A DNA stretch of 64,000 nucleotides from an uncultured Rickettsiales bacterium (GTDB lineage: Bacteria; Pseudomonadota; Alphaproteobacteria; Rickettsiales; UBA1997), in assembly GCA_944392135.1 (NCBI GenBank), contig CALXVQ010000001.1, positions 5,359-69,358 on the forward strand, in the 5' to 3' direction. The translations under genes were made by a program, and so were the position numbers. The number at the start of each line of letters is the position of its first letter. Positions within the stretch are counted from its first letter, which is position 1. This document shows, in pieces, positions 3,482 to 53,465 of the stretch. The notes below the pieces were generated by a model. That model saw only the letters and a list, made by a program, of their open reading frames with translations. It did no database searches and was not told where the DNA came from.

Positions 3482-4072
3482 ATGTGGTTTATAATTAGAC
3501 ATGCTCAAACACTTGAAAATAGTTTAGGTATTCAACAAGGGCAAATGGATAGTTTATTAAGCTTAAAAGGAATTATCCAAGCTCAATCTATTGCTTATAG
3601 AATTTTAGATTTTAAAGAAGAAAATTTTGAAGAATATGAATTTATTACAAGCCCACTGACAAGAACTAGACATACTTTACAAATAATTATGGAAATATTA
3701 AATATTAAAGATAAAAAGCCAATTATAGAACCATTATTATCTAGTAGAAATAAAGGTATTTTTCAAGGATTAGAAAAAGATAAAATTAAAGATATATACC
3801 CAGAAGAATATGCAAAAATGCAAAAAGATATGTGGAATTATATTCCACCACAAGCCACAGAATCAAAAAATGACACTTACAATAGAATTAAAGATTTTAT
3901 TGAAAAATATAAAGATCATAAGAATGTTATTCTTATTACACACGGTAGCATTACAAAAATGATTAAACAAGAATTATTAAATATGAAAGGCGATGAAACT
4001 TCTAATAATAATTTTACAAAAAACCAAAATTATTTCTATTGTTGGAATGGTGATACTATGGAAAAAATATAA
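3482..4072 (+). CDS. histidine phosphatase (phosphoglycerate-mutase-like) family protein
   Basis: N-terminal IIRHAQTLEN (RHG/RHA catalytic motif) and C-terminal LITHGSI second-His motif. Strong SD (AGGGGG) 6 nt upstream. Confidence 0.7.
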   Translation: MWFIIRHAQTLENSLGIQQGQMDSLLSLKGIIQAQSIAYRILDFKEENFEEYEFITSPLTRTRHTLQIIMEILNIKDKKPIIEPLLSSRNKGIFQGLEKDKIKDIYPEEYAKMQKDMWNYIPPQATESKNDTYNRIKDFIEKYKDHKNVILITHGSITKMIKQELLNMKGDETSNNNFTKNQNYFYCWNGDTMEKI

Positions 4073-4075
4073 AGC

Positions 4076-4103
4076 TTGACTTTTATTTTATTTTTTTTAC
4101 AAT
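4076..4103 (+). promoter_or_regulatory. candidate sigma70-type promoter for the 775-aa pilin-like gene
   Basis: TTGACT (4076-4081), 16-nt spacer, TACAAT (4098-4103). Confidence 0.4.
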
Positions 4104-4136
4104 TAAGGTACTATATTGCAATTATTTTTTTAAAAA

Positions 4137-6464
4137 ATGAGAAATATTTCCAAGAAGTATAGTAAGAATATTGCATATTCCAATAACTTTGCATACATTG
4201 TTAATCTTACAAATAATAAAATTAAAAATAAAAAATTATCAAACAACATATATGGCTACAATCTTATTACTTTAAGTATGGTTGTACTTATTATGGGTGT
4301 TATAATGACAGCTCTTATAGGTTATTATGATGCTTTAAACATCAACAGAAGAACAACCATGACAGAGGATAAATTTAAAATAATCAACACATCATTAGTA
4401 GCATATCTTGCAAAGAATGGTAAGTTTCCTTGTCCGGCTCCATTAGATTGTGATTTACAAGGTTGTAATAATGACAGTGTTTTCACAGAGAAAGTTTTAG
4501 GAATAGAATTTAGACAAGACAGAGACATTGACAATGACTGTATTGCAGATAATTCTGGTGTTTTTGAATCAAAAAACGAAAAAGGAGAAAAAATTCTTTA
4601 TGGAAATGTTCCAGCTTTATCGTTAGGTTTAGATAATAATTATTTAATAGATAGTTGGCAAAATAAAATTGTTTATATTATTCCAGACATACTTACAAAA
4701 GACAATTCATTAAAAAATATATTATTAAACAAAGATGCAAGAGATCCAACTATTTCAGATGAATATGTAAAAGATGGTGAAATATTTTTATTATTATCAA
4801 ATAATGTTAACACTTCCGGTGCTTTCCCATACGAAAACAGAGAAAGCAACGATTTTTCTAGCCTTATTAGTTCATCGCATAACGAAGATAAATATAATCT
4901 TCCACAAAAAGATTTTACCATTGATTTAGAAAATGCAAAACAACTAAAATTTCATACCAATATAGATAATTTACATGATGCAATTAGAAAAAATTTTATA
5001 GATGAAAGTGATATTGGAGCCCCAGATTGTGCTGAGACAACAGAAACAGTATTACTTATCGATGATACTGGCAATAGTTCCGAGCCTGATTCTATACCAT
5101 ATGTTGATAAATATAATGATGTTCATAAAACTCAATGGAAAGACGATTCTACAGCGGTTAAAAATTATAAAGCAATACCATTTAAAATTCCAGATGATGT
5201 AACAGAAGTTTTTATTGAATTATGGGGGGCACAAGGTGGTGGGCAAGATTGTGCTGGAGAAGGTGATATGGGTATGTTAGGTGGCAAAGGTGGTTATACC
5301 TATGGATTTTTAGACACTACAGATGAAAATTTAGAAAAAATTGGTGTTAAAGATAGAACTATATATTTTTTTATTGGCGGATATGGAAAAAATGTTGCTA
5401 GCAATAAAGGTGGTGGTGGTGGTTGGAATGGTGGCGGTGGAGCTGCTACAGGTACCATATCATCGAAAAAAGAAGGTGCTGGTGGTGGAGCAACTGATGT
5501 TAGAACATCTGCGAATTTATCTAATCTCGCAGATTGGAAAAGTACTTTGAGTAGTAGATTAATGGTAGCTGGTGGTGGTGGTGGAAGTTCTGTTGGTGGT
5601 TTAACATATGATCAAGAAAAAGGTGGTGCAGGTGGTGGTGGAAATAATAATGGTTCAAATAGTGGCTCACATGGTGGTGCAACACCTGGACGTGGTGGAT
5701 GTGCCATAGGTGATAGTGATGGTAGTTGTTGCAAAATAAATCCAGCTAATATTGGCAATAATGGTGGTGGAGGAGGCTATTATGCCGGTGGAGGAGGTGG
5801 TTTATCAAATGGATGTTCAGCAACATCTGGTGGTAATTATGCCGGTGGAGGTGGTGGTTCTGGTTATATAAATAATAGTATAATATCGGACAGGAAAACA
5901 CCATGTAGTGTTAAAGAGGCTTGTACAGATACTAAAAAAGGTGGAAAAGATAATAGTTATGGTCGTAATGATAAATGCAGTAAAAGAGGTGATGGAATAG
6001 CAGGAACTGCAAAGAATGGCCAAGCATCAATTATTTTTATAGGTGTTAAAAATGATAAAAAGGAAGAGCCATTTACATATTATTATACATTTACATTTAA
6101 ACAAGCAAAGGCTGGTGAAGTTAGATTTGCCGATGAAGTTTGTCCATCTAATGTGTCAGATCCTGTACAAAAAAGTGATTTTTATACAGTATCTACACAT
6201 AATTCAGCTTCTAAGCCAGCAAAAAAATGTGGTGATAATCAACAATGGGAACAAAATTTTGAATATACTTGTAAAGTATTGCCAAAATGTGAAAACCCTG
6301 TTAAAAAATTTTCAGGTGTTGATTGGGGTGATATAAATTATGATATTGTAAATACTGGAATCATTACAGGCACAGATAATACTACTAATACTATTGTAAA
6401 ATATAAATGTATAGTAGAATTAGATGAAACTGGAAATTATACAGCATCTTATATAAGATTATAA
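4137..6464 (+). CDS. type IV pilin/pseudopilin-like N-terminus fused to a large glycine-rich domain and a Cys-containing C-terminal domain
   Basis: Pilin-like hydrophobic helix GYNLITLSMVVLIMGVIMTALIG, with T instead of the usual E5. Pilin-core-like LVAYLAKNGKFPCPAP and DSWQNKIVYI. Then a glycine-rich domain signature: FKIPDDVTEVFIELWGAQGGG...GGKGGYTYGFL...IYFFIGGYGKN...GGGGGWNGGGG...GAGGGATDVR...RLMVAGGGGGS. Confidence 0.6.
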   Translation: MRNISKKYSKNIAYSNNFAYIVNLTNNKIKNKKLSNNIYGYNLITLSMVVLIMGVIMTALIGYYDALNINRRTTMTEDKFKIINTSLVAYLAKNGKFPCPAPLDCDLQGCNNDSVFTEKVLGIEFRQDRDIDNDCIADNSGVFESKNEKGEKILYGNVPALSLGLDNNYLIDSWQNKIVYIIPDILTKDNSLKNILLNKDARDPTISDEYVKDGEIFLLLSNNVNTSGAFPYENRESNDFSSLISSSHNEDKYNLPQKDFTIDLENAKQLKFHTNIDNLHDAIRKNFIDESDIGAPDCAETTETVLLIDDTGNSSEPDSIPYVDKYNDVHKTQWKDDSTAVKNYKAIPFKIPDDVTEVFIELWGAQGGGQDCAGEGDMGMLGGKGGYTYGFLDTTDENLEKIGVKDRTIYFFIGGYGKNVASNKGGGGGWNGGGGAATGTISSKKEGAGGGATDVRTSANLSNLADWKSTLSSRLMVAGGGGGSSVGGLTYDQEKGGAGGGGNNNGSNSGSHGGATPGRGGCAIGDSDGSCCKINPANIGNNGGGGGYYAGGGGGLSNGCSATSGGNYAGGGGGSGYINNSIISDRKTPCSVKEACTDTKKGGKDNSYGRNDKCSKRGDGIAGTAKNGQASIIFIGVKNDKKEEPFTYYYTFTFKQAKAGEVRFADEVCPSNVSDPVQKSDFYTVSTHNSASKPAKKCGDNQQWEQNFEYTCKVLPKCENPVKKFSGVDWGDINYDIVNTGIITGTDNTTNTIVKYKCIVELDETGNYTASYIRL

Positions 6465-6493
6465 CCATAAAAAATCATCAGTTTAATATTATT

Positions 6494-7765
6494 GTGGTGT
6501 GAGGTCTCTAACCCCACACCTGATGTTTACAGATGATAGAGTTTTATAAAATCAATTTGCGAAGTTAATTTTTTTCTGTGGTGTGAAGTCTCCCGACCCC
6601 ATACCAAAAGAGACTACCATAGTATCCCATCCCAAGATTGCCACGGCTTTTTCAAAGCCTCGCAATGACGCTTCTTTTTTTCGTCATTGCGAGCGAAGCG
6701 AAGCAATCCATAAACCACCAATAGCTAATATAAAAATAGAAAAGAAAAGAATTCCATGAATGAATAATTATGTCTCATACCGAGATTGCCACGGCTTTTG
6801 CAAAGCCTCGCAATGACAGGCCAAGAATAAACGAGATTGCCACGAGTTGCAAGCAACTCTCGCAATGACGATGTGGGAGTACTGTCATTGCGAGGAGTGA
6901 AACGACGAAGCAATCCACAAACCACTGATATTTCATTTATTCACAGAAAAAATAAAAAATTTCACCAATAGAATAATTAATTATATAATTATAATAATTA
7001 ATACAAAAACAAAAAGAAAAAGAAGCTATTATTATTTATCAAGTCCAAGAATTAATTTCAAATGAAATATTAATTTTCAATTTTCAATTTCTTATAGATT
7101 ATCATAAAATTTTGTTTGACTATTATAATGTTCTATCCCGAGATTGCCACAGCTTTTTCAAAGCCTCGCAATGACAGGCTAAGAATAAACGAGATTGCCA
7201 CAGGCCTTCGGCCTTCGCAATGACGAGTTTGTGTATACTGTCATTACGAGCGAAGCGAAGCAATCCACAAACCACAAACTACCACCCCTTTGTCATTGCG
7301 AGCAAAGCGAAGCAATCCATAAACCACCAATAGCTAATATAAAAATAGAAAATAAAAAGAATTCCATGAATAAATAATTATGTCTCATCCCGAGATTGCC
7401 ACGGCTTTTTCAAAGCCTCGCAATGACGAGTTTGTGTATACTGTCATTGCGAGCAAAGCGAAGCAATCCACAAACCATCAATAACCTATTCATTCACAGA
7501 AAACCAAAAAAATTCACTACCACTCATCCCCTTCGTCATTGCGAGGAGTGAAACGACGAAGCAATCCATAAACCACTGATAGCTAATACAAAAATAGAAA
7601 AGAAAAGAATTCACTACTCTCGTCCCCTTTCGTCATTGCGAGAACCGAAGGTTCGTGGCAATCCATCAACCACCATTATTTTATTCATTCATAGAAAAAT
7701 AAAAGAATTCATCACCCTTTGCCCCCTTCGTCATTGCGAAGGCCAAAGGCCTGTGGCAATCCACA
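6494..7765. repeat. intergenic array 1 of hairpin modules (GTCATTGCGAG-[variable stem-loop]-GTGGCAATC and relatives)
   Basis: About 14 modules in both orientations, for example 6835-6869, 7193-7224 and 7631-7664. They are interleaved with AT-rich linkers (AAAATAGAAAAGAAAAGAATTC..) and GGTGTG..CACACC hairpins at 6494-6520 and 6578-6603. Confidence 0.9.
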
Positions 7766-8212
7766 ACCACTGTCATTTATAAATAAAATATAATAAACTA
7801 ATTTATTTATTAGTTTACCAGATTATAAAATAAGTCATCCCAGTTCTTATTATTTTCTTCTATTAATTCTATTTTTTTACTTCTAGAACCAGCTTTTAAT
7901 TGTTTTTCTCTTGAAATTGCATTATACATATCATCATAAACTTCATAATAAACCAATTTATCTACATTATATTTCATTGTAAATCCTTCTATTTTCTTGG
8001 ATTTGTGTTCCGATACTCGTCTTAATAAATCATTTGTGACACCAATATATAATGTACCATGTTTTTTATTTGCTAATATATATACATATGAAGTTTTATT
8101 CATTAATGAAGTATCTTTTTTTAAGAAAAATATAACAATTATTATTAAAATAAAGAGTTTTTTATTTTAATAAATTAATGGATTGCCACGAACCTTCGGT
8201 TCTCGCAATGAC
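7730..8212 (-). mobile_element. 483-bp unit: GIY-YIG gene bounded by inverted hairpin modules (copy 1)
   Basis: Ends are GTCATTGCGAAGGCCAAAGGCCTGTGGCAATCC (7730-7762) and GGATTGCCACGAACCTTCGGTTCTCGCAATGAC (8180-8212), in inverted orientation. The whole unit is near-identical to 59620-60102 on the other strand. Mobility is a hypothesis. Confidence 0.45.
7810..8103 (-). CDS. small GIY-YIG nuclease family protein (YhbQ/COG2827-like), copy 1
   Basis: 97 aa. The sequence SYVYILANKKHGTLYIGVTNDLLRRVSEHKS...KLVYYEVY...AISREKQLK carries the GIY...YIG motifs plus conserved R and E. Identical protein to 59729..60022. Confidence 0.85.
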   Translation of the reverse strand: MNKTSYVYILANKKHGTLYIGVTNDLLRRVSEHKSKKIEGFTMKYNVDKLVYYEVYDDMYNAISREKQLKAGSRSKKIELIEENNKNWDDLFYNLVN

Positions 8213-8875
8213 GGTGTGTGGATGTCGGTTCTCGCAGTGACGAGTTGGTGGGTAATTATCATAATGATGAGTTGGCATGTAGATCGTCACCATTCCGAGA
8301 TTGCCACAGCTTTTGCAAAGCCTCGCAATGACAGGCCAAGAATAAACAAGATTGCCACAGGCCTTCGGTCTTCACAATGACGAGTTTTGGTTGGGTATGG
8401 TAGTCGCCATATCAAGCTTGCCACGAGTTGCAAGCAACTCTCGCAATGACGAGTTGGTGTATACTGTCATTGCGAGCGAAGCGAAGCAATCCATAAATTT
8501 ATTGTAGTGTAGTTGTGAAGTTGGTTTTTGTTAGTCTTGGGTGTTGGATAGGGATATCTAACGCCACAAAGGGGTGCAAAAAAATGGTAAACTCAACCCC
8601 CCACTGACTTCGTCAGCACCCCCCTTACAAAGGGAGGCAAGCCCCACAAACCAATACTCACCACCCTTCGTCATTGCGAAGGCCAAAGGCCTGTGGCAAT
8701 CCATAAACCACAAAACCACCACAAAAAAACAGAAAAAAAAGAAATCACTATTATTTATCAAGTTAAAGAACTAATTTTTAATGAAATATTAATTTTCAAT
8801 TTTCAATTTTCAATTTCTCTCTCAATCCCCTTGTTGCTTTGCAACTTCCCCTCTTACAAATGGAGTCACTTGTCT
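8180..8875. repeat. intergenic array 2 of hairpin modules plus C-rich box and TTTTCAA heptamer tract
   Basis: Modules at about 8180, 8296, 8350, 8416, 8466 and 8668. C-rich box at 8594-8645, with a degenerate copy at about 8821-8870. (TTTTCAA)x3 at about 8795-8818. Confidence 0.9.
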
Positions 8876-9061
8876 TTGGCATTTGATGAGACATCAAACA
8901 CCACAAAAAAGCAAAAATTTATAAAAAAGTAGAAAATTCAAATTTTTTTATTAAAAATTTAAACATAGTATTTTCATACTCTCAAAGACATAAAAAATCA
9001 AAAAGTTAAAATAATTTTTAATTTTTTATTAAGCTATATATAAAAAGTAATATAAAAATAC

Positions 9062-9089
9062 TTGACAAGTGGAATAAATGTACTATATT
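9062..9089 (+). promoter_or_regulatory. candidate sigma70-type promoter for the RM-like operon
   Basis: TTGACA (9062-9067), 16-nt spacer, TATATT (9084-9089), about 150 nt upstream of 9241. Confidence 0.4.
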
Positions 9090-9240
9090 ATATTTATATA
9101 AATAAAAACAATAAAAGTGATTGTTTATAATATGGCAAAATATTTTTTACTCGCAGTATACAAGATATACTAAAAGTTAAAAAATATTAGTCAAGATATG
9201 GGGGCATCTTTAATAATTTTATTAATGAAGTATAAATTAT

Positions 9241-10908
9241 ATGAGTAATGATTTTTATAAATTAAGAATTTTTCTTTTTAAAGATGATGTTGAGAATTTA
9301 AATGAATGTTTTAATATAGATAAAATAAAAGATAAACAAAATTATAAAGAATTAAAATTTGAAAATGATATTGAAGCAAAAGGATATATTTGGAATAATA
9401 TATCTGCTGATGATAATAAACCAAAATGGTTTAATATTATAGATTTTTTTGATGATGATAATTCAAATCAAATTAATACTTTAAAAAATACAATACATTC
9501 AATTTTTGTATTAAAAGTTCAAAATAGAATATTTGGATTTAATTTTGGACAAGGATATTGGGCTTTTAATGATGAAAAAATAGAAACTGATTTTGGTTTA
9601 AGGATTCTTTTAAATATTGTTGATAAATTTAATCATCTATCATCTCTATCTATAGATGAAAATATAATAAATAAAAAAATAGATGCAAATAAATCAAATG
9701 AACTTAATGTTTTTACACCAAATAAAGATATGGATATAGTAAAGTCATTTATTGGAACAGTTAAGGAAGAATATAAAAATATTTTTTCAGAAAAAATTAG
9801 TGCAACTATAAATTCAATATTAATTAATTATAATATTGAAAATGCCAAAGATGATTTAATAAAATTATGTTTAAATTTAATAAAAATTAATTCTATAAAA
9901 GATTATGAAAAAAATATAAAATATCAATGGATTATTAATAAAAGATTAGAAAAAGATCAAGTTATATTAAATAATATAAATCAAATAATTATTGACGATT
10001 TAAAGAATAAAAATGATAACTTACAATTAAATTTATTTGATTTATCTTTTGAAAATTCATCAACATCTTATTTTAAGTATGCATTAAACGATCATACTAA
10101 ACATAAAAATTTAAAAGAATTTAATGATTTATCTATAAATGATTATTATGCTGAAATTTCAAAAAGAGGTGTTACTATTAATAATTTAGAAGATTTAAAA
10201 CATCATTTCATTTTGGATCAAAACAATGAAATACTTGCTAGTATTTATAATTCTTTGATTGCAGAAGTCAATTTTAAAAATTCAATTTATATATTATATC
10301 AAGGCAAGATTTTTAAAATATCTACTGATTATAAAAATGAAATAGATAATTTTTTTCAAACTTTGATTAATGACTCTCAAGATATAAAACTACCAGATTA
10401 TAATTCACAAAATGAACATGAATATAATGAAATTATAAGTAATAATTATGGTTATGTATGTTTAGATGCAAAGAATGTTACAATAAGAGATAGTGATAAA
10501 TTTGAAATTTGTGATGTTTTATCAAATAAAAAAGAATTTTTTTGTATTAAACATAAAAATTATTCATCAACATTAAGTCATCTTTTTAACCAAGCTCTAA
10601 ATTCTATAAAAATATTAAGAAATGATAAAAAGATAAGAGAAAAAGCAAATGATCAAATAAAAAAAGAACTGAATAAAAAATCAAAATATTTTAATATAAA
10701 TGAAGATTTTTCTGATTATCAAATTACTGATGATTCTTTAAAAGATTCTACTATTGTATTTGCTGTAATAGATAAAGAAACCAATAAAAGAAAATTACCA
10801 TTTTTTAGTGTAATTTCCTTAAAACAAGCAGTTGATTTATTATATGAAAAGGGATATAAAGTAAAATTTTGTTGGATTAATAATAATAGTTTAAAAAATG
10901 AAAAATAA
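9241..10908 (+). CDS. TIGR04141/DUF6119-like protein with a putative PD-(D/E)xK-type nuclease motif
   Basis: Family-like landmarks recalled from memory: N-terminal YKLRIFLFKDD, KPKWFNIIDFF, FGFNFGQGYWAFNDEKIETDFGLRILLN, and C-terminal LDAKNV...FEICDVLSNKKEFFCIKHK..STLSHLFNQALNS...LPFFSVISL. Overlaps hsdS by 11 nt. Confidence 0.5.
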   Translation: MSNDFYKLRIFLFKDDVENLNECFNIDKIKDKQNYKELKFENDIEAKGYIWNNISADDNKPKWFNIIDFFDDDNSNQINTLKNTIHSIFVLKVQNRIFGFNFGQGYWAFNDEKIETDFGLRILLNIVDKFNHLSSLSIDENIINKKIDANKSNELNVFTPNKDMDIVKSFIGTVKEEYKNIFSEKISATINSILINYNIENAKDDLIKLCLNLIKINSIKDYEKNIKYQWIINKRLEKDQVILNNINQIIIDDLKNKNDNLQLNLFDLSFENSSTSYFKYALNDHTKHKNLKEFNDLSINDYYAEISKRGVTINNLEDLKHHFILDQNNEILASIYNSLIAEVNFKNSIYILYQGKIFKISTDYKNEIDNFFQTLINDSQDIKLPDYNSQNEHEYNEIISNNYGYVCLDAKNVTIRDSDKFEICDVLSNKKEFFCIKHKNYSSTLSHLFNQALNSIKILRNDKKIREKANDQIKKELNKKSKYFNINEDFSDYQITDDSLKDSTIVFAVIDKETNKRKLPFFSVISLKQAVDLLYEKGYKVKFCWINNNSLKNEK

Positions 10909-12025
10909 TTGGGAAATAAAAAAACTTAAAGAATTAGGAGCTATTTTTTTAGGTGGGACACCAAATACATCTAAAAAAGAGTATTGGAATGGTGATATTA
11001 ATTGGCTTACACCATCTGAAGTTTCAAAATTAAAAAGTAAGTTTATTTTTTCTACAGAAAAAACAATTACAGAGTTAGGACTAAAAAATAGTTCTGCAAA
11101 AATTTTGCCAAAAAATTCTTTAATTGTTTGTACAAGGGCAACTATTGGGGATCTGTGTATAAATAAAATAGACATGTGTACCAATCAAGGTTTTAAAAGT
11201 ATAATTGTAAATAAAAATAATAATGTAATTTTTCTTTATTTTTTGCTTTTATTTAATAGAAGAAAAATTATAGAAAAAGCTAGTGGTAGTACATTTTTAG
11301 AAATATCAAAATTTGATTTTGAAAATTTGTCTTTTCCCATCCCCCCACTGGAAGAGCAAGAGAAAATTGTATCAATTCTTTCAAAGCAAGATGAGGTGAT
11401 TGAGAAGCTTGAGAAGTTGATTGAGTTGAAGGTTAGGCAGAAGAAGGGCTTGATGCAACGACTTTTAAGTGGTAAGTTAAGGCTAAAAGGTTTTAGTGGT
11501 GATTGGAAGGAAAATATTATGCAAAGTATAATATTGATTTTTAAAAAAACAAAACATAATTCTTCTGATGGCAAAAACAATGGAAAATATCCGTTTTTTA
11601 TAAATAATTCTGAAAGTTTCTTAAAATTTTTAGATGAATTTGATTATGATGCTGAATGTATAATAGCTAATACAGGTGGAAATGCTTTTTTTGATTATTA
11701 TAATGGTAAATTTTCTGCTAGTAGTGATTGTTTTATATTTTCATCTAAAATTAATACATTATTTTTATATTATTTTTTAAAATCAATTGAAAAAACTGTA
11801 AATATAGTAGGTTTTGCTGGTTCTGGAATAAAACATTTAAATAAAAAATGGTTTTATAAATTAAAAATACTAATCCCACCAACAATAGAAGAGCAATCGG
11901 CTATTGCTTCAATTCTTTCGAAGTGTGATGAGGAAATTGAGTTGTTGAAGAAGAAGTTGGGGTTGTATAGGGGGCAAAAAAAGTGGCTTATGGAAAAGCT
12001 GTTGAGTGGTGAAATAAGGGTTTAG
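10898..12025 (+). CDS. hsdS: type I restriction-modification specificity subunit HsdS
   Basis: Two target-recognition domains, each followed by the conserved coiled arm. The arms are PPLEEQEKIVSILSKQDEVIEKLEKLIELKVRQKKGLMQRLLSGKLRL and PPTIEEQSAIASILSKCDEEIELLKKKLGLYRGQKKWLMEKLLSGEIRV. N-terminal GGTPNTSKKEYWNGDINWLTPSEV. Confidence 0.88.
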   Translation: MKNNWEIKKLKELGAIFLGGTPNTSKKEYWNGDINWLTPSEVSKLKSKFIFSTEKTITELGLKNSSAKILPKNSLIVCTRATIGDLCINKIDMCTNQGFKSIIVNKNNNVIFLYFLLLFNRRKIIEKASGSTFLEISKFDFENLSFPIPPLEEQEKIVSILSKQDEVIEKLEKLIELKVRQKKGLMQRLLSGKLRLKGFSGDWKENIMQSIILIFKKTKHNSSDGKNNGKYPFFINNSESFLKFLDEFDYDAECIIANTGGNAFFDYYNGKFSASSDCFIFSSKINTLFLYYFLKSIEKTVNIVGFAGSGIKHLNKKWFYKLKILIPPTIEEQSAIASILSKCDEEIELLKKKLGLYRGQKKWLMEKLLSGEIRV

Positions 12026-12028
12026 GCA

Positions 12029-12973
12029 ATGGAAACTAATGTTTATTTTTGTAAGAAAAATGGTATACTTTTGATGGCATATCAAAATGGTAAAAATCAA
12101 AATATATTTTTGCGAGTTAGTCGTGCTGATTATGCTCCATTTATAGAAACTTGTTTAATATGTGATAATAGTTATGATATTGAAAAAGTTATTACAAATT
12201 GTTATGAATATCCTATAATGGAAAAAAAATATATGAAAATTGGTGTTAAATATAAACATATTTGGAAACCTTTTATAATTAATAATGTCGAAAATGAACT
12301 TGAATTTACAATTTCTGAAGCATATCGTGCAAAAAGGGATTTGCAGATTCTTATAGAGAAAATGCAGGAGTTGCTTTTGTTTGTTGAACCAAGTAATGAA
12401 GGTTTAAAATCTTATAGTCATAAAGCAAGGGAATTATTGTTTTTGGCTTGTTCTGATTTTGAATCGATGTTAAAAAAATATAATTTTGGTAAAAATGAAA
12501 GAATGAATGATTATATTGAAATAATGAAATATATTGATTTGTCTAAATTTAAAATACAGCTTGTTGGTTATAGTAAATCGTATAAATGTTCTCCTTTTGA
12601 AAATTGGAATGTGAAAGATCCATCTAAATCATTATCTTGGTATTATGCTTATAATCAATTAAAACATAATATAGATAAAAATTTTCATTTGGCAACATTG
12701 GAAAATTGTATTAATGCAATAAGTGCAAATATAATATTATTTACAATTAGATATTCTACGAATTATATATATGCAAAAGATGATACTTGTTCAAGTTTGA
12801 TTAGGGGTTCATTTGATTATAGAATAGAAAATTCTATGGATTTTTATATACCTATTTTTGAAGGTGAAAGAAGTTATAGTGGGGCATTTGGGAATAGCTA
12901 TAAATTTTATAATGGTGAAGTGGTATCAAATATTTATGATATTGTAAAACCATTGTCATTTGTGGAAATATAA
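12029..12973 (+). CDS. hypothetical protein inserted between hsdS and hsdR
   Basis: 314-aa ORF, 3 nt after hsdS and 16 nt before hsdR. Predicted helical C-terminal half with SWYYAYNQLKHNIDKNFHLATLENCINAISANIILF. No family recognised with confidence. The true start may be the internal MAYQNG. Confidence 0.5.
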   Translation: METNVYFCKKNGILLMAYQNGKNQNIFLRVSRADYAPFIETCLICDNSYDIEKVITNCYEYPIMEKKYMKIGVKYKHIWKPFIINNVENELEFTISEAYRAKRDLQILIEKMQELLLFVEPSNEGLKSYSHKARELLFLACSDFESMLKKYNFGKNERMNDYIEIMKYIDLSKFKIQLVGYSKSYKCSPFENWNVKDPSKSLSWYYAYNQLKHNIDKNFHLATLENCINAISANIILFTIRYSTNYIYAKDDTCSSLIRGSFDYRIENSMDFYIPIFEGERSYSGAFGNSYKFYNGEVVSNIYDIVKPLSFVEI

Positions 12974-12989
12974 ACAATTAAGGTAAAAT

Positions 12990-15900
12990 ATGGTGAAATA
13001 TAGTGATTTTATTGAAAAAATTTCTTCTCAACAACCGGCGATTAAGTTGTTGGAAAATATGGGGTATAAGTATATGTCTCCGTTTGAGGCTTTTGAGCAA
13101 AGGGGGGATTATAGAAATGTTGTTTTGAAGGATGATTTGAGGGAATTTTTGCAAAGGCAAAGGTTTGAGTATGATGGTAAGGAAAGTGCTTTTTCGCAGG
13201 CTAATATAAATAATGCTATTAAGGATGTGGATGTGTCGTTGAATAATGGGTTGGCACAGGCATCGCAGGATGTTTATGATATGTTGTTGTATGGTAAAAG
13301 CTATAATGAAATATTGGCTGATGGTTCTATAAAATCGTTTAATTTGAAATATGTGGATTGGGAGAATATAAATAATAATATTTTTAGGGTTGTTGATGAA
13401 TTTACTGTTTCTAATATTGATACAAGAGAAAATAAAAGGCCGGATATTGTTGTTTTTGTGAATGGTTTGCCTTGGGTTGTTATTGAATGTAAAAGATCAT
13501 CTGTTGATGTTGGTATGGGGGTTAGACAAAATTATGAAAATTTTTCTGTGATTCCGCAGTTGTTTAAGCTTGCACAAATAGTTTTGGCTTTGAATCCTAA
13601 TGAGGTTAAGTATGGAACTTGTGGAACTGGTAGGGAGTATTTTGTTAATTGGAAGGAAGAGTTTGATGGTTGGCTTGAAGAAAAATGTAAAGAGTATGTA
13701 GTTGATAGGAGTGTTAGGGAACAAGATAGGGTTTTGATTTCTTTGCTGTCAAAGGAAAGATTGTTTTTAATTGTGAAAAATTATATTTTGTATGATTATG
13801 GAATAAAGAAAATAGCAAGATATCAGCAGTTTTTTGCATGTGAAAAAACAATAAAAAAAGTTAAAAGTGGAAAGGGTGGATTTATATGGCATACACAGGG
13901 TAGTGGTAAGTCTTTAACTATGGTTATGCTTGTAAAAAGGATTAAAGAAGAATCTATTAAAAATGATTGTTTTTTTAAGAATCCAAGGTTTTTGATGGTT
14001 TGTGATAGGCTTGAATTGGATGAGCAATTGATGAATAATTTTGCTAAAACAGGTATGCGACCTAATAGGGCTACGACTGGAAATAATTTAGTAAGTTTGA
14101 TAAAAGATGAAGGTAAAACTATTATTACTACTGTTATTCATAAATTTGAAACGGCACAAAGTAAATTGCAACCTATAAATGGTAAAAATATATTTATATT
14201 TGTTGATGAATGTCATAGGACTCAGTCAGGAAATTTTCATAATTATATGAGAGATATATTGCCTAATGCTATTAAGATAGGTTTTACAGGAACTCCAATT
14301 TTTAAAAAGGAAAAGAAACAAACACATAGAATTTTTGGTGATCTTATTGATTCTTATACAATTCTTGAAGCAGAAAAGGATAAAGTTATTGTTCCATTAA
14401 ATTATGAAGGAAGGATAATTCCACAAAAAATAGCTGATGATAATACTATTAATAAATGTTTTGAACAAATATGTTTTAATGTGAGTGATGAAGAAAAGGA
14501 GAAGTTAAAAACAAAATGGAGTAGTTTGACAAAAATAATGCAAGTGGATTCAAGATTGCAAATAATAGCTTTTGCTATTGCTAAACATTTTGCTAGTTTT
14601 AAAAATGAGATGGTGAAAGCTATGGTTACTGAAAGTTCAAGAGTTAATGCTATTAAGTTGCATAGATTTTTAAGAGATAATGGTATAAGAAGTAAAGTTG
14701 TTATTTCACCGAATACACTTAAAGCAGAAGGAATTGAAGAAGCTAGTGATTATGATTTAAAATATATTGAAGATTTTTTTAAGGAAGAAGTGGAAAGGGA
14801 TTTTGGAAAGAATTATGAAAAATATGAAAGATATGTTAGAAGTAATTTTATTGATTCAGAAGGTTGTGTTGATGTAATTGTAGCAAAAGATAAATTATTG
14901 ACAGGTTTTGATGCTCCAATAGCAAAAATATTATATATAGATAAACCTTTAAGGGATCATAATTTATTGCAAGCAATAGCAAGGGTGAATAGAATTTATA
15001 CTGGAAAAGAGTATGGGCAAATTATTGATTTTTATGGTGTTTTTGGGAATTTAAAGTCGGCCATTGATATTTATTCTAATGCAGAATATGGACTTGGTAA
15101 GTTTGATGAAAATGATATAAAAGGAACATTATTAATAAAAGATGATTTAATTAGAGAATTAAGACTTAATTATGAAAATTTAATATCTATTTTTAGTGAT
15201 TTTGATATTCATGATAAAAATGTAGATATAGAAGTTTTAGAGGATTATTTAAAAGATTCTAGTGAAGATAAAGAAATTGGAAAAATATCGGATAAAAGAA
15301 AAGATTTTTATGATAAACTAAATAAATTTTCATTATCTTTGGAATGTGTATTAAGAAATTATGAAGCTTATAAGTCTCTTGAAGAAGAAGAGATTAAAAA
15401 GTATAAAGAAGATTTAAAATTTTTTCAAGCATTAAAAAGTTCTATAAAAATTAGATATGGTGATGATTCAAAAATTGATTTTTCACTAGAAGATAAACAA
15501 ATAAAAAGATTATTAAATTCATATCTTAGTTCTGAAATGGATAAAATTATTGTTAATAATTTTAAAATTACAGATAAAGAAGCTATGGAAAGAGAATTGG
15601 CAAAAATGTCGGGAAATAAAAGTAAAGCTGATGCAATAGCTACTCGTATGGATGCACTAATTAAGGAAGAATTTTTTAAAGATCCATTGTTGTATAAAAA
15701 TTTTACTGATAAAATTAAAGAAACTATTGAAGAATATGAAAATGAAAGAAGAGATGAAGATTATTTTCTTGCTATGCAAAAAATAGCAGAAGATTATAGG
15801 GAAGGTTTTACAGGAAATAAATATCCAGAAAATATAGAAAATGATGCAAATTCAAAATCATTCTATGGTTGTTTGAAAATATCTATAGATGAAAAAAGGA

Positions 15901-16157
15901 ATATTATAGAAAATAGTGAGTTTGATTTAGAACTTGGTAATTTATCAATTAAAATAAAAGAATTGTATAAAGATAAAATTAAACCAAATTGGGAGAATAA
16001 TATGGTAATAAGGCAAAGTATTAATAGAGAAATTGATAAATTTTTATTTAAATTAATGGATGATTTCCATATTGATTTAAGTGATGATGATTTAGATAAA
16101 ATTGAAGAAAATATTTTTAAAACAGCTGTAAAAAGATATGAATACAAACTTATTTGA
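12990..16157 (+). CDS. hsdR: type I restriction endonuclease subunit HsdR
   Basis: HSDR_N nuclease motif RPDIVVFVNGLPWVVIECKRS. Helicase motif I HTQGSGKSLTM and DEAH-type motif II FVDECHRTQ. Later motifs FTGTP and LLTGFDAP...QAIARVNR. 1055 aa. Confidence 0.92.
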   Translation: MVKYSDFIEKISSQQPAIKLLENMGYKYMSPFEAFEQRGDYRNVVLKDDLREFLQRQRFEYDGKESAFSQANINNAIKDVDVSLNNGLAQASQDVYDMLLYGKSYNEILADGSIKSFNLKYVDWENINNNIFRVVDEFTVSNIDTRENKRPDIVVFVNGLPWVVIECKRSSVDVGMGVRQNYENFSVIPQLFKLAQIVLALNPNEVKYGTCGTGREYFVNWKEEFDGWLEEKCKEYVVDRSVREQDRVLISLLSKERLFLIVKNYILYDYGIKKIARYQQFFACEKTIKKVKSGKGGFIWHTQGSGKSLTMVMLVKRIKEESIKNDCFFKNPRFLMVCDRLELDEQLMNNFAKTGMRPNRATTGNNLVSLIKDEGKTIITTVIHKFETAQSKLQPINGKNIFIFVDECHRTQSGNFHNYMRDILPNAIKIGFTGTPIFKKEKKQTHRIFGDLIDSYTILEAEKDKVIVPLNYEGRIIPQKIADDNTINKCFEQICFNVSDEEKEKLKTKWSSLTKIMQVDSRLQIIAFAIAKHFASFKNEMVKAMVTESSRVNAIKLHRFLRDNGIRSKVVISPNTLKAEGIEEASDYDLKYIEDFFKEEVERDFGKNYEKYERYVRSNFIDSEGCVDVIVAKDKLLTGFDAPIAKILYIDKPLRDHNLLQAIARVNRIYTGKEYGQIIDFYGVFGNLKSAIDIYSNAEYGLGKFDENDIKGTLLIKDDLIRELRLNYENLISIFSDFDIHDKNVDIEVLEDYLKDSSEDKEIGKISDKRKDFYDKLNKFSLSLECVLRNYEAYKSLEEEEIKKYKEDLKFFQALKSSIKIRYGDDSKIDFSLEDKQIKRLLNSYLSSEMDKIIVNNFKITDKEAMERELAKMSGNKSKADAIATRMDALIKEEFFKDPLLYKNFTDKIKETIEEYENERRDEDYFLAMQKIAEDYREGFTGNKYPENIENDANSKSFYGCLKISIDEKRNIIENSEFDLELGNLSIKIKELYKDKIKPNWENNMVIRQSINREIDKFLFKLMDDFHIDLSDDDLDKIEENIFKTAVKRYEYKLI

Positions 16158-16836
16158 AAAATATAATATAATACTTATTAGAAAAGATATAAAAAATTTT
16201 ATTTTAAGAATAAAAAATAATCTTGAAATATCTTTATCTGTTCCATTATCGGCAACAGATGAAGATATTGATAAATTTTTAAGTAATAAAGAATATTGGA
16301 TTCAAAAAGAAATAAATAAATTCAATTCTGTAAGACAATATGATAAAATAAATTTATTTTGTGAAGGTGGAGAAGTTAGAATTTTAGGAAGGCAATATAG
16401 AATTTCTGTAAAAATAAGTGAAAAAAATAATATTTTTATTTATGACAATCAATTAATTATAGAAACAAATGATATAGATAATATTAAAAAGCAATACGAA
16501 AATTATTACAAAAAAGAAGCAATAAAATGTTTTAATGAGAGACTGAATCATCAATATAATATTGTAGGAAAATATGGTATTGAAAAACCAAATATAAAAA
16601 TTAAAAAAATGAAAAATATTTGGGGGTCATATACAAAAAGAACAAATACAATTTTATTAAATTACTATTTATATACTGCACCAATATATTGTATTGATTA
16701 TGTAATTTTACATGAATTAACACATACAAAATATTATAATCATAGTGAAGATTTTTATTTATTTTTAACTTTTTATATGCCTGATTGGAAAGTTAGAAAA
16801 AAAGAATTGGATTATAATTATTCTAGGTATTTATAA
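16138..16836 (+). CDS. DUF45/YgjP-like (M48-type) zinc metallopeptidase
   Basis: HELTHTKYYNHSEDFY (HExxH followed by NHS..F). Start overlaps the hsdR stop by 20 nt. This family is commonly linked to hsdR genes. Confidence 0.78.
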   Translation: MNTNLFEKYNIILIRKDIKNFILRIKNNLEISLSVPLSATDEDIDKFLSNKEYWIQKEINKFNSVRQYDKINLFCEGGEVRILGRQYRISVKISEKNNIFIYDNQLIIETNDIDNIKKQYENYYKKEAIKCFNERLNHQYNIVGKYGIEKPNIKIKKMKNIWGSYTKRTNTILLNYYLYTAPIYCIDYVILHELTHTKYYNHSEDFYLFLTFYMPDWKVRKKELDYNYSRYL

Positions 16837-20944: not shown

Positions 20945-21930
20945 TCAAGAATAAACGAGATTGCCATGGCTTTTTCAAAGCCTCGCAATGACGAGTTTGT
21001 GAATATCACCCTTTGCCCCTTCGTCATTGCGAGACTTCGTAGAAGTCGTGGCAATCCATAAACCACTAATAGTCAATACAAAAATAGAAAAGAAAAAGAA
21101 TTCACTATTATTTAATAAACCAAAGAATTAATTTTCAATTTTCAATTTTCAATTTTTAATTTCTTTCTCAACCCCCCTGTTGCTTCGCAACATCCCCCCT
21201 TACAAAGGGAGGCAAGCCCCCATAAATCACCACTCACTGCTCTTCGTCATTGCGAGGAGTGAAACGACGAAGCAATCTACAAACAACCAATAATAAACAC
21301 AAAAACAAAAAAGAAAAAGAAATCACTATTATTTATTAAATTAAAGAATTAATTTTCAATTTTCAATTTTCAATTTCTTATGGATTGCCACGAGTTCTAC
21401 AAACTCTCGCAATGACGGTGTGGGTTGAGTGTGATTGTTGCCATACTGAGATTGCCACGGCTTTTTCAAAGCCTCGCAATGACGGTTCTTTTTTTCGTCA
21501 TTGCGAGCGAAGCGAAGCAATCCATAAATCACAAAAAGTTAATACAAAAACAGAAAAGAAAAAAAGCATTCGCTATTTTTAATCAAGTCAAAGAACTAAT
21601 TTTAAATAAAATATTAATTTTCAATTTTCAATTTTCAATTTTCAATTTCTCTCTCAACCCCCCTGTTGCTTCGCAACTTCCCCCCTTACAAAGGGAGGCA
21701 AGCCCCATAAGCCACCAATAACAAACACAAAAACAGAAAAGAAAAAGAATTCCATGAATGAATAATTATACCCCATACTGAGATTGCCACGAGTTGCAAG
21801 CAACTCTCGCAATGACGAGTTTGTGAATACCACCTCTTGCCCCCTTCGTCATTGCGAGGAGTAAAACGACGAAGCAATCTACAAACAACCAATAATAAAC
21901 ACAAAAACAAAAAAGAAAAAGAATTCACCA
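20945..21930. repeat. intergenic array 3 of hairpin modules, C-rich boxes and heptamer tracts
   Basis: Modules at about 20956, 21023-21057, 21245, 21383-21416, 21438, 21495, 21779 and 21846. C-rich boxes at 21169-21221 and 21655-21706. Confidence 0.9.
21618..21645. repeat. (TTTTCAA)x4 heptamer microsatellite
   Basis: Four perfect tandem TTTTCAA units directly abutting a C-rich box. The same tract occurs with 2-4 units at about 7073, 8795, 21133 and 21349, and inverted at 27892 and 28479. Confidence 0.9.
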
Positions 21931-27734: not shown

Positions 27735-28925
27735 TAGAGTAGGGCAAATTCTTTTGTTTTTTTGTTTTTGTTTTTTTATTGGTAGTGAATTCTTTTGTTT
27801 TTCTGTTTTTATATTGACTTTTTGCGGATTAGGGGCTTACCTCCCTTTGTAAGGGGGGAAGTTGCGAAGCAACAGGGGGGTTGAGAAAAAATTGAAAATT
27901 GAAAATTGAAAATTGAAAATTAATACATAAGAAATTGAAAATTGAAGCACAAAGTGGGAAAATGATAATACTTGCATAATCATTTTAGCTTGTTGTCCCA
28001 CGAAGTGCGAAACGAACGAAGTGAGGATTAAAATTAAAAATTAATACTTCATTTGAAATTAATTCTTTGGTTTATTAAATAATAGTGAATTCTTTTATTT
28101 TCTATTTTTATATTAACTATTAGTGGTTTGTGGTTTGCTTCGTTATTTTACTTCGGATAATAATGAATAGGGCGAATGGTGGTGATTTCTTTTTCTTTTC
28201 TGTGAATGAATAAAATAATAGTCGTTTGTGGATTGCCACAGGCCTTCGGCCTTCGCAATGACGAAAAGTGGTGAGTAGTGGTTTATGGTGGCTTACCTCC
28301 CTTTGTAAGGGGGGAAGTTGCGAAGCAACAGGGGGGTGAGAGAGAAATTAAAAATTAAAAATTGAAAATTAATACATAAGAAATTAAAAATTGAAGCACA
28401 AAGTGGAAAAATGATATGCTTGCATAATCATTTTAGCTTGTCGTCCCACGAAGTGCGAAACAAACGAAGCATAAGAAATTGAAAATTGAAAATTGAAAAT
28501 TGAAAAATAGTTCTTTGACTTGATAAATAATAGTGAATTCTTTTATTTTCTGTTTTTGTATTTATTATTAGTGGTTGTGGATTGCCACAGGCCTTCGGCC
28601 TTCGCAATGACGAAGGGGGTAAAGGGTGATTAATCCTTTTGTTTTTCTGTGAATAAATAAAAGACTAGTGGTTATGGATTGCTTTGTCGTTTCACTCCTT
28701 GCAATGACAAAGGGGGATGGTTGTGGATTGCTTCGCTCCGCTCGCAATGATGAAGGGGTAAAGGGTAGTATTCATAAACTCGTCATTGCGAGAGTTCGTA
28801 GAACTCGTGGCAATCTCGTTATTCTTGGCTTGTCATTGCGAGAACCGAAGGTTCGTGGCAATCTCGTTATGGCAACAGCCACACCCAACCCGCACTGTCA
28901 TTGCGATGGCTTGAAAAGCCTGTGA
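27735..28925. repeat. intergenic array 4 of hairpin modules, inverted C-rich boxes, heptamer tracts and a duplicated ~100-nt unit
   Basis: C-rich boxes (reverse orientation) at 27832-27893 and about 28290-28345. Modules at about 28229, 28578, 28676, 28724, 28781, 28832 and 28896. The ~100-nt unit is at 27921-28020 and 28370-28470. Confidence 0.9.
27892..27919. repeat. (TTGAAAA)x4 heptamer microsatellite (reverse orientation of TTTTCAA)
   Basis: Four perfect tandem units. A further four-unit tract lies at 28479-28506. Confidence 0.9.
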
Positions 28926-41726: not shown

Positions 41727-41763
41727 TTGTTGACTTTAATAAAACATAGAATATTATGTCTTT

Positions 41764-41810
41764 TGGAGATGGAGTTCTCCTTTAACCGCAACTAGCTGAT
41801 AACTCCTACT
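41764..41810 (+). promoter_or_regulatory. fluoride riboswitch (crcB RNA motif) candidate
   Basis: UGGAGAUGGAGUUCUCCUUUAACCGCAACUAGCUGAUAACUCCUAC matches the remembered consensus GGnGAUGGnnUUCnCC...AACCGC...GCUGAU.A(nnn)CCUAC. The pseudoknot pair is GGAGU / ACUCC. Located 27 nt upstream of the ATG of a cation/H+ antiporter gene. Confidence 0.68.
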
Positions 41811-41836
41811 TTTAAAAACAATATAAGGAGTTTTGT

Positions 41837-43039
41837 ATGCTTTTTCAAATATTTAGTCTTGTATTTTTAGGTTTAATTATAGATTGGCTTTTTAGAAAAA
41901 TTAAATTACCATCACTTACTGGATGGTTGATTTTTGGTATTATAATTAGTCCTAATACTTATAATTTATTTGGTAGTGAAGTTCTTAGTGTTTCACAAGA
42001 ATTTAAAAATTTAGCATTAATTGTTATTTTATTAAGGGCAGGACTTGAAATAGATTTACAATCACTAAAAAAAATTGGCATTAGAGCTATATTAATGTCA
42101 TTTATCCCTTGTGTTATTGAAATGGTTTTTGTAGCTTTTTCAGCTAATAAATTGTTGGACTTGACATTACTTGAATCATTTATGTTGGGAAGTATTTTAT
42201 CTGCTGTATCACCTGCAATTATTGTTCCTTCTATGATTGATGCAATCAAAGCAAAAAGAGGTATCAAAAAAGGTATCCCTACATTAGTTTTAGCTGGTTC
42301 AAGTTGTGATGATGCTGTGGCTATGGTATTTTGTGCTTCGTTTGTTTCAATGTATATTGGTAGTAATGTAAGTTTAGTTCAAAATTTAGTTGATATTCCA
42401 ATTTCAATTATTGTTGGCATTATAGTTGGTATAGCAATAGCTATAATATTAAATAAAGTGTTTGATAAATTTAACCCACGAGCTACAAAAAGGATTTTAA
42501 TTTTATTATTTATAGCAACGGCACTTTTAAAAATTGAAGAGATTTTGACTATAATTCCATTTTCTGCAATAATTACAATTATGACAATAGGTGTAGTTAT
42601 TTTAAGTAAAAATGAAGTTTATGCCAATGAATTATCTTTAAGATATGGAAAATTATGGATATTTTTACAAATACTATTATTTACATTAGTTGGTATGCAA
42701 ATTGATATAAAAATAGTTTTATCAACTGGTTTGTTAGGGTTTTTAATTATTTTTATTGGACTTTTAGGAAGAAGCATTGGTGTAATTTTATGTTTATTAA
42801 AAAGCGACTTAAATTTCAAAGAAAGATTATTTGTAGTTATTGCATATATTCCAAAAGCAACAGTTCAAGCTGCCATCGGCAGTATGCCACTCAATGCAAT
42901 GCTTACAAACAACTTGCCATCTTTGCCAGGACAAATAATTTTATCAATTGCTGTTTTATCAATTTTAATCACCGCTCCCCTTGGTTCATTTTTAATACAT
43001 TATAGTAGAGATAGATTATTGACAAGGGATATTAAGTAA
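41837..43039 (+). CDS. cation/H+ exchanger (Na_H_Exchanger, CPA family) membrane protein
   Basis: 400 aa, about 11-12 TM helices. LPSLTGWLIFGIIISP...LALIVILLRAGLEIDL...FMLGSILSAVSPAIIV is typical of CPA1/CPA2 antiporters. Confidence 0.78.
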   Translation: MLFQIFSLVFLGLIIDWLFRKIKLPSLTGWLIFGIIISPNTYNLFGSEVLSVSQEFKNLALIVILLRAGLEIDLQSLKKIGIRAILMSFIPCVIEMVFVAFSANKLLDLTLLESFMLGSILSAVSPAIIVPSMIDAIKAKRGIKKGIPTLVLAGSSCDDAVAMVFCASFVSMYIGSNVSLVQNLVDIPISIIVGIIVGIAIAIILNKVFDKFNPRATKRILILLFIATALLKIEEILTIIPFSAIITIMTIGVVILSKNEVYANELSLRYGKLWIFLQILLFTLVGMQIDIKIVLSTGLLGFLIIFIGLLGRSIGVILCLLKSDLNFKERLFVVIAYIPKATVQAAIGSMPLNAMLTNNLPSLPGQIILSIAVLSILITAPLGSFLIHYSRDRLLTRDIK

Positions 43040-52611: not shown

Positions 52612-53465
52612 TATTGGTTTTTTTGTAGTTTATGGATTGCTTTGCTTCGCTCGCAATGACGAAGGGGGGCTTATGGATTGCTTTTTCGTTTACAATGACA
52701 GTACATACAAACTCGTCATTGCGAAGGCCGAAGGCCTGTGGCAATCTTGGTATGAGACATAATTATTCATTCATAGAATTCTTTTTCTTTGCTGTTTTTG
52801 TATTAACTTTTTGTGGTTTATGGATTGCTTCGTCGTTTCACTCCTCGCAATGACAGTACCCTTGTATCGTCATTGCGAGGCTTTGAAAAAGCCGTGGCAA
52901 TCTCGTTTATTCTAGGCTCGTCATTGCGAGGCTTTGAAAAAGCCGTGGCAATCTCAGTATGGCAACCACTGCACACAACCCAAGCTTGTCATTGCGAAGG
53001 CCGAAGGCCTGTGGCAATCCATAAGAAATTAAAAATTAATATTTCATTTGAAATCAATTCTTTAACTTGATAAATAATAATAATTTCTTTTTCTTTTCTG
53101 TTTTTGTATTTGCTGTTGATAGTGAATTCTTTTGTTTTTTTGTGAATGAATAGACTATCGGTGGTTTGTGGATTGCTTCACTTTGCTCGCAATGACAGGG
53201 GGGCAAAAAGTGGTGAATTCTTTTTCTTTTCTGTTTTTGTATTAACTTTTAGTGGTTTGTGGATTGCTTCGTCGTTTCACTCCTCGCAATGACAGTACCC
53301 TCGCATCGTCATTGCGAGACTTTGAAAAAGCCGTGGCAATCTCGTTTATTTTAGGCTCGTCATTGCGAGAGTTGCTTTGCAACTCGTGGCAATCTCAGTA
53401 TGACAACCGCTACACACAACCCAAACTTGTCATTGCGAAGGCCGAAGGCCTGTGGCAATCTTGAT
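52612..53465. repeat. intergenic array 5 of hairpin modules, including two copies of a ~208-nt four-module super-unit
   Basis: About 12 modules. Super-units at 52813-53020 and 53252-53460. Confidence 0.9.

Follow-up and report, generated by a model that had tools for sequence, protein, structure and literature searches.

How can a type I restriction operon persist when it encodes the specificity subunit HsdS and the restriction subunit HsdR but not the methyltransferase subunit HsdM? This question is raised by five co-directional genes in a stretch of 64,000 nucleotides (nt) from an uncultured Rickettsiales bacterium (contig CALXVQ010000001.1 of assembly GCA_944392135.1), to which we refer, at its full length, as the window. 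The genes encode a protein of the DUF6119/TIGR04141 family, HsdS, an uncharacterised protein of 314 amino acids (aa) here called X, HsdR, and a YgjP-like peptidase (Table 1). An initial annotation of the window had called intact R and S subunits without M a paradox, and had proposed that hsdM lies elsewhere, that the locus is decaying, or that S and R have been recruited with the flanking proteins into a different defence module. The absence of hsdM proved to be real, but most of the paradox dissolves on comparison with relatives, which carry hsdM in cis. The best overall explanation is a truncated type I operon whose genes are still selected and which probably uses an unlinked hsdM.

The five-gene locus and its relatives

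The coordinates of the five open reading frames (ORFs) were confirmed, with an 11-nt overlap, a 3-nt gap, a 16-nt gap, and a 20-nt overlap at successive junctions, as were the neighbours claimed for them: on the upstream side a repeat field with a GIY-YIG ORF, and on the downstream side an ABC-transporter operon in convergent orientation. Profile searches bore out the initial family assignments. The first protein matches DUF6119 (E 1.7e-91) and TIGR04141 (E 1.2e-86) over its full length. Two Methylase_S stretches were recognised in HsdS (E 1.9e-50), which contains the two target-recognition domains (TRDs) expected of a type I HsdS and is collinear with HsdS of L089, a complete operon described below. 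HsdR matches TIGR00348 (E 1.5e-138), with HSDR_N, SWI2_SNF2/ResIII, and T1R_D3 domains, and has both the PD-(D/E)xK nuclease and the superfamily 2 (SF2) helicase of type I enzymes; the nuclease residues D152/E166/K168 and motor motifs I, II, III, and VI (Walker A at 302–308, D406-E407-x-H409, TGTP at 433–436, and QAIARVNR at 661–668) are kept. Both subunits look intact, as first described. The peptidase matches the YgjP-like profile (E 5.8e-49; 167 bits for PF01863 against a cut-off of 26), retains the zinc motif H192-E193-x-x-H196 together with a conserved H202, and weakly matches projannalysin (4jix). PADLOC gave no match for DUF6119, X, or YgjP.

Table 1. Coordinates and strands of features in and upstream of the operon (window positions).
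Feature	Position	Strand	Remarks
Replacement region, where smallS–hsdM–rhuM would be expected	6465–9209	.	2.7 kb of non-coding AT-rich DNA, non-homologous to L089
Hairpin-repeat fields	6600–8700, 20980–21860, 28250–28840, 52650–53440, 59220–59560, 60090–60400		both orientations
GIY-YIG ORF, 97 aa	7810–8103	-	inside a repeat field, between 39-nt inverted copies at 7631–7669 and 8175–8213 (97% complementary)
Best sigma-70-like promoter match, TTGACA-16-TATATT	9062–9091	+	consensus match, 11 of 12 positions; within replacement DNA
Retained 3' part of rhuM–DUF6119 spacer, including ribosome-binding-site region	9210–9240	+	blastn block and alignment with L089
DUF6119/TIGR04141 protein, 555 aa	9241–10908	+	embedded cargo gene, M–S slot
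hsdS, 375 aa	10898–12025	+	two TRDs (~10940–11330 and ~11513–11860) with central and C-terminal conserved regions
X, 314 aa, uncharacterised	12029–12973	+	occupant of the hsdS–hsdR slot throughout the operon family
hsdR, 1055 aa	12990–16157	+	nuclease and SF2 motor motifs intact
YgjP-like (DUF45, M48-type) Zn-metallopeptidase, 232 aa	16138–16836	+	usual last gene of the operon family

The claim that the window lacks HsdM also stood. When four HsdM and three RhuM proteins from related operons were used as tblastn queries, nothing was found in any frame of the 64 kb (best E 0.46), a HsdM profile built from 31 relatives matched no ORF of the window, and neither tblastn nor profiles detected a remnant of hsdM or rhuM there. 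Thus, no HsdM with N6_Mtase and HsdM_N domains is encoded with the system in the window, whereas one is encoded in 29 related loci. The five-gene arrangement without hsdM is not an assembly artefact, as at least 12 contigs, including one of 198 kb, carry the protein set of the window in the same order, and these derive from several independent samples and different assemblers.

For the comparison with relatives, about 100 full-length homologues of X at 45–72% identity were collected, the neighbourhoods of progressively diverged members were viewed, and 72 reference-genome loci were then annotated with purpose-built profiles. Restricting the X subfamily to members with at least 45% identity left 29 loci with readable upstream DNA, and all 29 follow the plan smallS–hsdM–(0–4 cargo genes)–hsdS–X–hsdR(–ygjP), with hsdM always in cis. 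Their genes encode a small HsdS-like protein of 184–266 aa, HsdM of 498–521 aa, HsdS of ~400 aa, and HsdR of ~1040–1060 aa, and a YgjP-like peptidase closes the operon in nearly every case. The hosts are Candidatus Gastranaerophilales/Melainabacteria, gut Alphaproteobacteria, Elusimicrobiaceae, and others; this widespread layout of small S, M, cargo, S, X, R, and YgjP, found in gut Melainabacteria, Alphaproteobacteria, Elusimicrobia, and other groups, has not been described before.

The small gene at the start of these operons has a single TRD and overlaps and precedes hsdM in all relatives (for example, L009 5310–5891, L013 2329–2892, L089 6878–7447, and L093 2333–2905), so that each operon has two specificity genes; Pfam sees it in some loci and misses it in others. 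In a gut alphaproteobacterial locus, L031 (1633–10719), DUF4238, a 208-aa ORF, hsdS, a 269-aa ORF, X, hsdR, and ygjP follow one another, with ORFs on the opposite strand as well; no hsdM lies within the 1.6 kb upstream, where the contig stops, and this locus may be a second, independent M-less derivative, although it is ambiguous.

Two slots of the operon vary in content among relatives. RhuM, DUF6119, DUF4238, or proteins of unknown type occupy the M–S slot, and X, X with extra ORFs, or an IS200 transposase the S–R slot. DUF6119 and X are therefore both embedded cargo, in the sense of same-strand genes that lie between hsd genes in a variable slot. DUF6119 is found between hsdM and hsdS in the M-containing operons L011, L018, L023, and L089 but is missing from most S–X–R loci, and X is missing from L089; neither, therefore, is an obligate partner. 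A neighbourhood search from the 555-aa and 314-aa proteins found the S–X–R(–YgjP) core to be conserved, but the exact M-less order of five genes was confined to one species-level lineage (only variants with 99% and 97% protein identity). DUF6119 and X are embedded passengers and YgjP is the usual trailing gene, none of them taking the place of HsdM. Recruitment of S and R into a new defence module with the flanking proteins is not supported, as DUF6119, X, and YgjP all occur in operons of relatives with a normal hsdM. The evidence points essentially to what the initial annotation had named as its refuting case, a split type I system of the ordinary kind that carries passengers, except that X is a conserved and not a random passenger of this operon family.

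Truncation of the operon and the DNA that replaced its 5' end

When the DUF6119 protein of the window was used as a query, the search returned, besides a strain variant at 99% identity, one close relative (71%), which lies in L089/L090. The genes there are ordered as a 189-aa small-S-like gene, hsdM, rhuM, DUF6119, hsdS, an IS200-type Y1 transposase gene, hsdR, and ygjP. Compared to the window, the L089 proteins are 71% (DUF6119), 60% (HsdS; TRD1 85%, TRD2 unrelated), 69% (HsdR), and 72% (YgjP) identical, and both operons have the 11-nt overlap between DUF6119 and hsdS. The transposase gene (L089 12885–13382) fills the hsdS–hsdR slot instead of X, indicating that this HsdR lineage does not require X and that the occupant of the slot is exchangeable.

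Window positions 9210–11464 align by blastn with L089 positions 9968–12221 at 81.5% identity, in a block that begins 31 nt 5' of the DUF6119 start codon. Weaker similarity extends to the position of the L089 rhuM stop codon, with nothing homologous further upstream, placing the 5' breakpoint of homology within 9210–9240 or up to ~35 nt further upstream. Because L089 carries smallS–hsdM–rhuM immediately upstream of the point where homology starts, the window operon is very probably a 5'-truncated derivative of a smallS–hsdM–rhuM–DUF6119–hsdS–(X)–hsdR–ygjP operon that has lost its first three genes or been separated from them. The ancestral order, kept in L089, would have been small-S-like gene, hsdM, rhuM, DUF6119, hsdS, (X), hsdR, and ygjP. 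All DNA 5' of the rhuM–DUF6119 spacer would have been removed or separated, leaving the 3' five-sevenths of a cargo-carrying operon. Counterparts of the window's flanking proteins are absent from all 72 genome loci, and an empty or ancestral insertion site is accordingly not reconstructable; synteny of the window flanks with L024 was considered and rejected, as none of the flanking proteins has a counterpart there.

The region that stands in place of the three genes shows no similarity to the HsdM, RhuM, or small-S proteins of relatives and contains ~18 exact cores (more than 25 degenerate copies), in both orientations, of a hairpin repeat, GTCATTGCGAR...GCAATCC, in which a variable GC-rich stem lies between the core GTCATTGCGAR and its partner GCAATCC. 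This repeat is dispersed, with 53 exact cores in the 64 kb compared to 0.03 expected, distributed in both orientations over six intergenic fields, and the same family is present in the related strain L088, in L089, and at the end of the L093 contig. Given this abundance, the repeat is a plausible substrate for a rearrangement that would have separated the first three genes. The GIY-YIG ORF has the same position in L088 (96% nt identity) and is possibly a small mobile unit tied to the spread of the repeats. A new promoter would have to sit in the replacement DNA, made up of the repeat field and the GIY-YIG gene, that now adjoins the spacer; sigma-70-like sites in this AT-rich upstream region, including the best match (Table 1), are no more frequent than in shuffled sequence. 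Because the locus belongs, in truncated form, to a common operon family, it does not qualify as a new system, and the claim of an M-less type I-like defence system mostly fails.

Selection, hsdS exchange, and the location of HsdM

Strain L088 has the same M-less layout as the window between the same flanking genes, and the loss of hsdM from the operon therefore predates the split between the two. Between these strains, hsdR differs by 17 synonymous and 18 nonsynonymous substitutions, a ratio of nonsynonymous to synonymous divergence (dN/dS) of 0.24 that reflects a deficit of nonsynonymous changes (binomial p 5.6e-5), and DUF6119 has a dN/dS of 0.18 (p 0.003). For comparison, dN/dS is 0.20–0.27 in the ABC-transporter and porin genes on either flank, at the same dS as the operon, whose divergence between strains equals that of these housekeeping neighbours. 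There are no stop codons in hsdR, where about 5.3 would be expected under neutrality. HsdR departs from family-conserved columns at 27 positions, 19 of which are shared with HsdR of the complete system in L089. By these measures, HsdR and DUF6119 are under purifying selection between two M-less strains.

The hsdS genes of the two strains form a sharp mosaic. Identity is ~100% to nt ~10930, 30–57% in TRD1, 83–97% in the central conserved region, and 40–70% in TRD2; beyond ~11890 it is again 97% or higher. Window positions 10940–11860 and L088 positions 3530–4480 thus represent complete replacement of an hsdS allele, with both TRDs exchanged, in strains that are otherwise ~99% identical. TRD1 of the window matches TRD1 of L089 (85% aa identity), and the fetched loci contain nothing closely related to the remaining three TRDs. 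Purifying selection and allele exchange in a lineage without hsdM in cis look like marks of a system in use and not of a fossil, which runs counter to the proposal of a decaying locus.

Of the three options first proposed, an hsdM elsewhere is the best remaining one. Because HsdR and DUF6119 are constrained and hsdS is exchanged without hsdM in cis, HsdR and HsdS most likely still work with a partner supplied in trans: they would join HsdM from an unlinked smallS–hsdM module to form a classical R2M2S1 enzyme. With both hsdS TRDs different, the window strain and L088 would then restrict and methylate with different specificity. The HsdM proteins of this lineage fall into three close clusters, at 93, 88, and 82% identity to HsdM of L089. 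A suggestive candidate for the relocated smallS–hsdM module of the window's lineage, although its assignment is unproven, is L093, in which smallS–hsdM is 79% identical in nucleotide sequence to L089, a value similar to the 77–81% between window genes and L089, and in which the hairpin-repeat family of the window, instead of rhuM, comes after hsdM at the point where the contig breaks. Taking this evidence together, we lean slightly towards an unlinked hsdM existing, and being used, in this genome.

Several observations weigh against that reading. No hsdM for this organism was found, in the 64-kb window or beyond it; a metagenome scan for HsdM returned only relatives at 58% identity or less, and the inspected contigs of the three HsdM clusters are short and come from samples other than that of the window. 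L093 is not assignable to the window's species, because the hairpin-repeat family also occurs in the organism of L089. The selection signal comes from two strains and, in hsdR, from 35 substitutions, and X, with 4 synonymous and 10 nonsynonymous substitutions between the strains (p 0.24), shows no significant constraint. Instead of having been selected, the hsdS swap may have hitch-hiked in on DNA imported from a strain whose system is complete. Finally, M and S normally travel together, and a split that leaves hsdS and hsdR apart from hsdM is unusual.

Some of these observations also fit the main rival explanation, which we regard as less likely, in which hsdM was lost outright and the rest of the operon is a dead remnant, either a set of functionless young pseudogenes-to-be or genes kept through a useful DUF6119 and/or X and their co-transcription. 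HsdR needs M2S1 to act, and a type I system can thus be turned off safely, without harm to the cell, by losing hsdM; hsdM was traced neither in the 64 kb nor in the same samples, X lacks significant constraint, and L031, if it is a second M-less derivative, would suggest recurrent loss. Deletion of hsdM is also viable in other bacteria (10.64898/2026.09.26.754597). A dead remnant, however, would not be expected to show the constraint on HsdR itself, the absence of stop codons, the intact catalytic motifs, an operon divergence no greater than that of the flanking housekeeping genes, or a full replacement of hsdS alleles between two M-less strains.

We consider it highly improbable that DUF6119–HsdS–X–HsdR–YgjP forms an M-independent defence module, guided by HsdS without methylation, with DUF6119 or X linking S to R in the role of HsdM and with a different way of protecting self-DNA. 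Maintenance of R, S, and DUF6119 without hsdM in cis is in keeping with this proposal, as are the constant position of X between S and R, its better conservation (66–71%) than that of HsdR (48%), and the overlap of DUF6119, which may carry a nuclease domain, with hsdS. But every diverged relative with these genes, in 29 loci, has hsdM, neither DUF6119 nor X is obligate, the M-less form is limited to one species-level lineage, and an S-guided nuclease without methylation would attack the host chromosome. Mis-joining or dropping of an hsdM part at the repeat field during assembly or binning is extremely improbable. Repeat fields do break assemblies, and the L093 contig stops at one of these repeats, but independent contigs of up to 198 kb, from different samples and assemblers, read from the upstream genes across the repeat field into DUF6119, as does the sequence of the diverged strain L088.

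If, as we favour, the truncated operon draws on an unlinked hsdM, the ongoing purifying selection and hsdS exchange predict that the system is split and that its specificity is not the same in the two otherwise near-identical strains. More generally, the locus is a natural experiment on the length of time for which HsdR and HsdS are retained once hsdM leaves the operon, and on the reasons for it.

The cargo proteins and comparison with known systems

X combines a confidently predicted fold that has no solved relative with stronger conservation than HsdR. Compared to the Gastranaerophilales loci (L016–L024), identity is 66–71% for X, 48–52% for HsdR, and 41–43% for YgjP. X has no match in Pfam, NCBIfam, or PADLOC; its AlphaFold (AF2) model, with a predicted local distance difference test score (pLDDT) of 93, has no significant fold match among structures in the Protein Data Bank (PDB), a 41-sequence profile has no PDB sequence match, and a search of BFVD matched only an uncharacterised siphovirus fragment. 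Residues E120, P121, H131, E135, C141, E145, W204, Y208, K212, and H213 are invariant and R134 is nearly so, a pattern that suggests an enzyme. Identification of X as a HEPN RNase was rejected: its conserved motif Y208-N-x-x-K212-H213 lacks the arginine of Rx4-6H, the best matches to HEPN toxins (HepT, 6m6u) have E about 2 and a TM-score of 0.46, and the profile is without a match in the PDB. Distant relatives of X (30–42% identity) occur in Psychrobacter, Pseudomonas, Acinetobacter, Bradyrhizobium, and others, for the most part as solitary genes that do not belong to restriction–modification loci. Both X and DUF6119 have phage-borne relatives, those of X belonging to phrog_19461.

The DUF6119 family is large and uniform: a threshold of E ≤ 1e-10 yields about 1,340 cluster representatives, with lengths of 515–565 aa. 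The window protein is ~25% identical to the DUF6119 proteins of Gastranaerophilales loci. In contrast to the copies embedded here and in four relatives, other members of the family, whose TIGR04141 label is "sporadically distributed protein", stand alone, and a literature search on DUF6119 function returned nothing relevant. The protein has no PDB sequence match, and its structure model (pLDDT 88) has no significant whole-chain fold match. Its C-terminal third holds invariant E392, E422, D425, K437, S446, H447, and Q451 and near-invariant D409 and H435, and Foldseek matched the C-terminal domain locally to CdiA-CT nuclease toxins (probability 0.94 and 0.77, with weak E values of 0.02–0.03). 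We hypothesise from this model that the C-terminal third is a possible PD-(D/E)xK-like nuclease domain. DUF6119/TIGR04141, a large family without an assigned function but with signs of a nuclease domain, can be added to the genes known from within type I operons.

Two features of the window lie outside the operon and its upstream field. A 775-aa ORF at 4137–6464 (+) contains an ALK/LTK glycine-rich domain (PF12810, E 1e-19), and its central part has a GC fraction of 0.39 compared to 0.22–0.25 in the surrounding DNA. A fluoride riboswitch at 41756–41815 (+; Rfam RF01734, 55.7 bits) is located directly 5' of a 400-aa ORF at 41837–43039.

The initial description of the three partners of S and R as non-canonical was overstated, as type I systems with genes inserted between hsdS and hsdR, and with an M48/YgjP peptidase at the end, had already been described. 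The RRDM island of enteropathogenic Escherichia coli (EPEC) has the order rptR–hsdM–hsdS–darT–darG–hsdR–M48, and its S–R gap has been called a recombination hotspot for defence genes (PMC12255303). PrrC is likewise embedded in type I loci, and a large-scale catalogue of genes embedded in type I, BREX, and DISARM loci lists 3,231 families (10.1101/2024.01.29.577857). As in the RRDM and PrrC loci, the order M–S–(embedded gene)–R–peptidase is found in all relatives of the window operon, with a YgjP/M48-type peptidase last, and the S–R and M–S gaps of the relatives act as variable cargo slots. Unlike in those loci, the cargo here consists of the uncharacterised X, DUF6119, and RhuM and not of DarTG or PrrC; moreover, in contrast to the RRDM island, no RptR-like regulator was seen, and the window itself lacks the hsdM end.

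Among solved structures, the window HsdR matched only HsdR of the type IC enzyme EcoR124I (2w00, E 2e-38, residues 118–695), and this relationship is distant. The relatives resemble EcoR124I in their M–S–R order and in subunit sizes (M ~520, S ~410, and R ~1038 aa), a likeness to type IC that comes from sequence, sizes, and order, whereas membership of type I families is defined by complementation or cross-hybridisation. In contrast to the window operon, EcoR124I has neither embedded genes nor a trailing peptidase. The arrangement that we propose has its nearest analogue in Sau1 of Staphylococcus aureus, a split type I system with one hsdR and unlinked hsdMS pairs. By analogy with Sau1, the subunits of one enzyme would come from separate loci and be assembled in trans. 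In Sau1, however, S remains with M and R stands alone, whereas here S is found with R, and M would stand alone with the small S-like gene.

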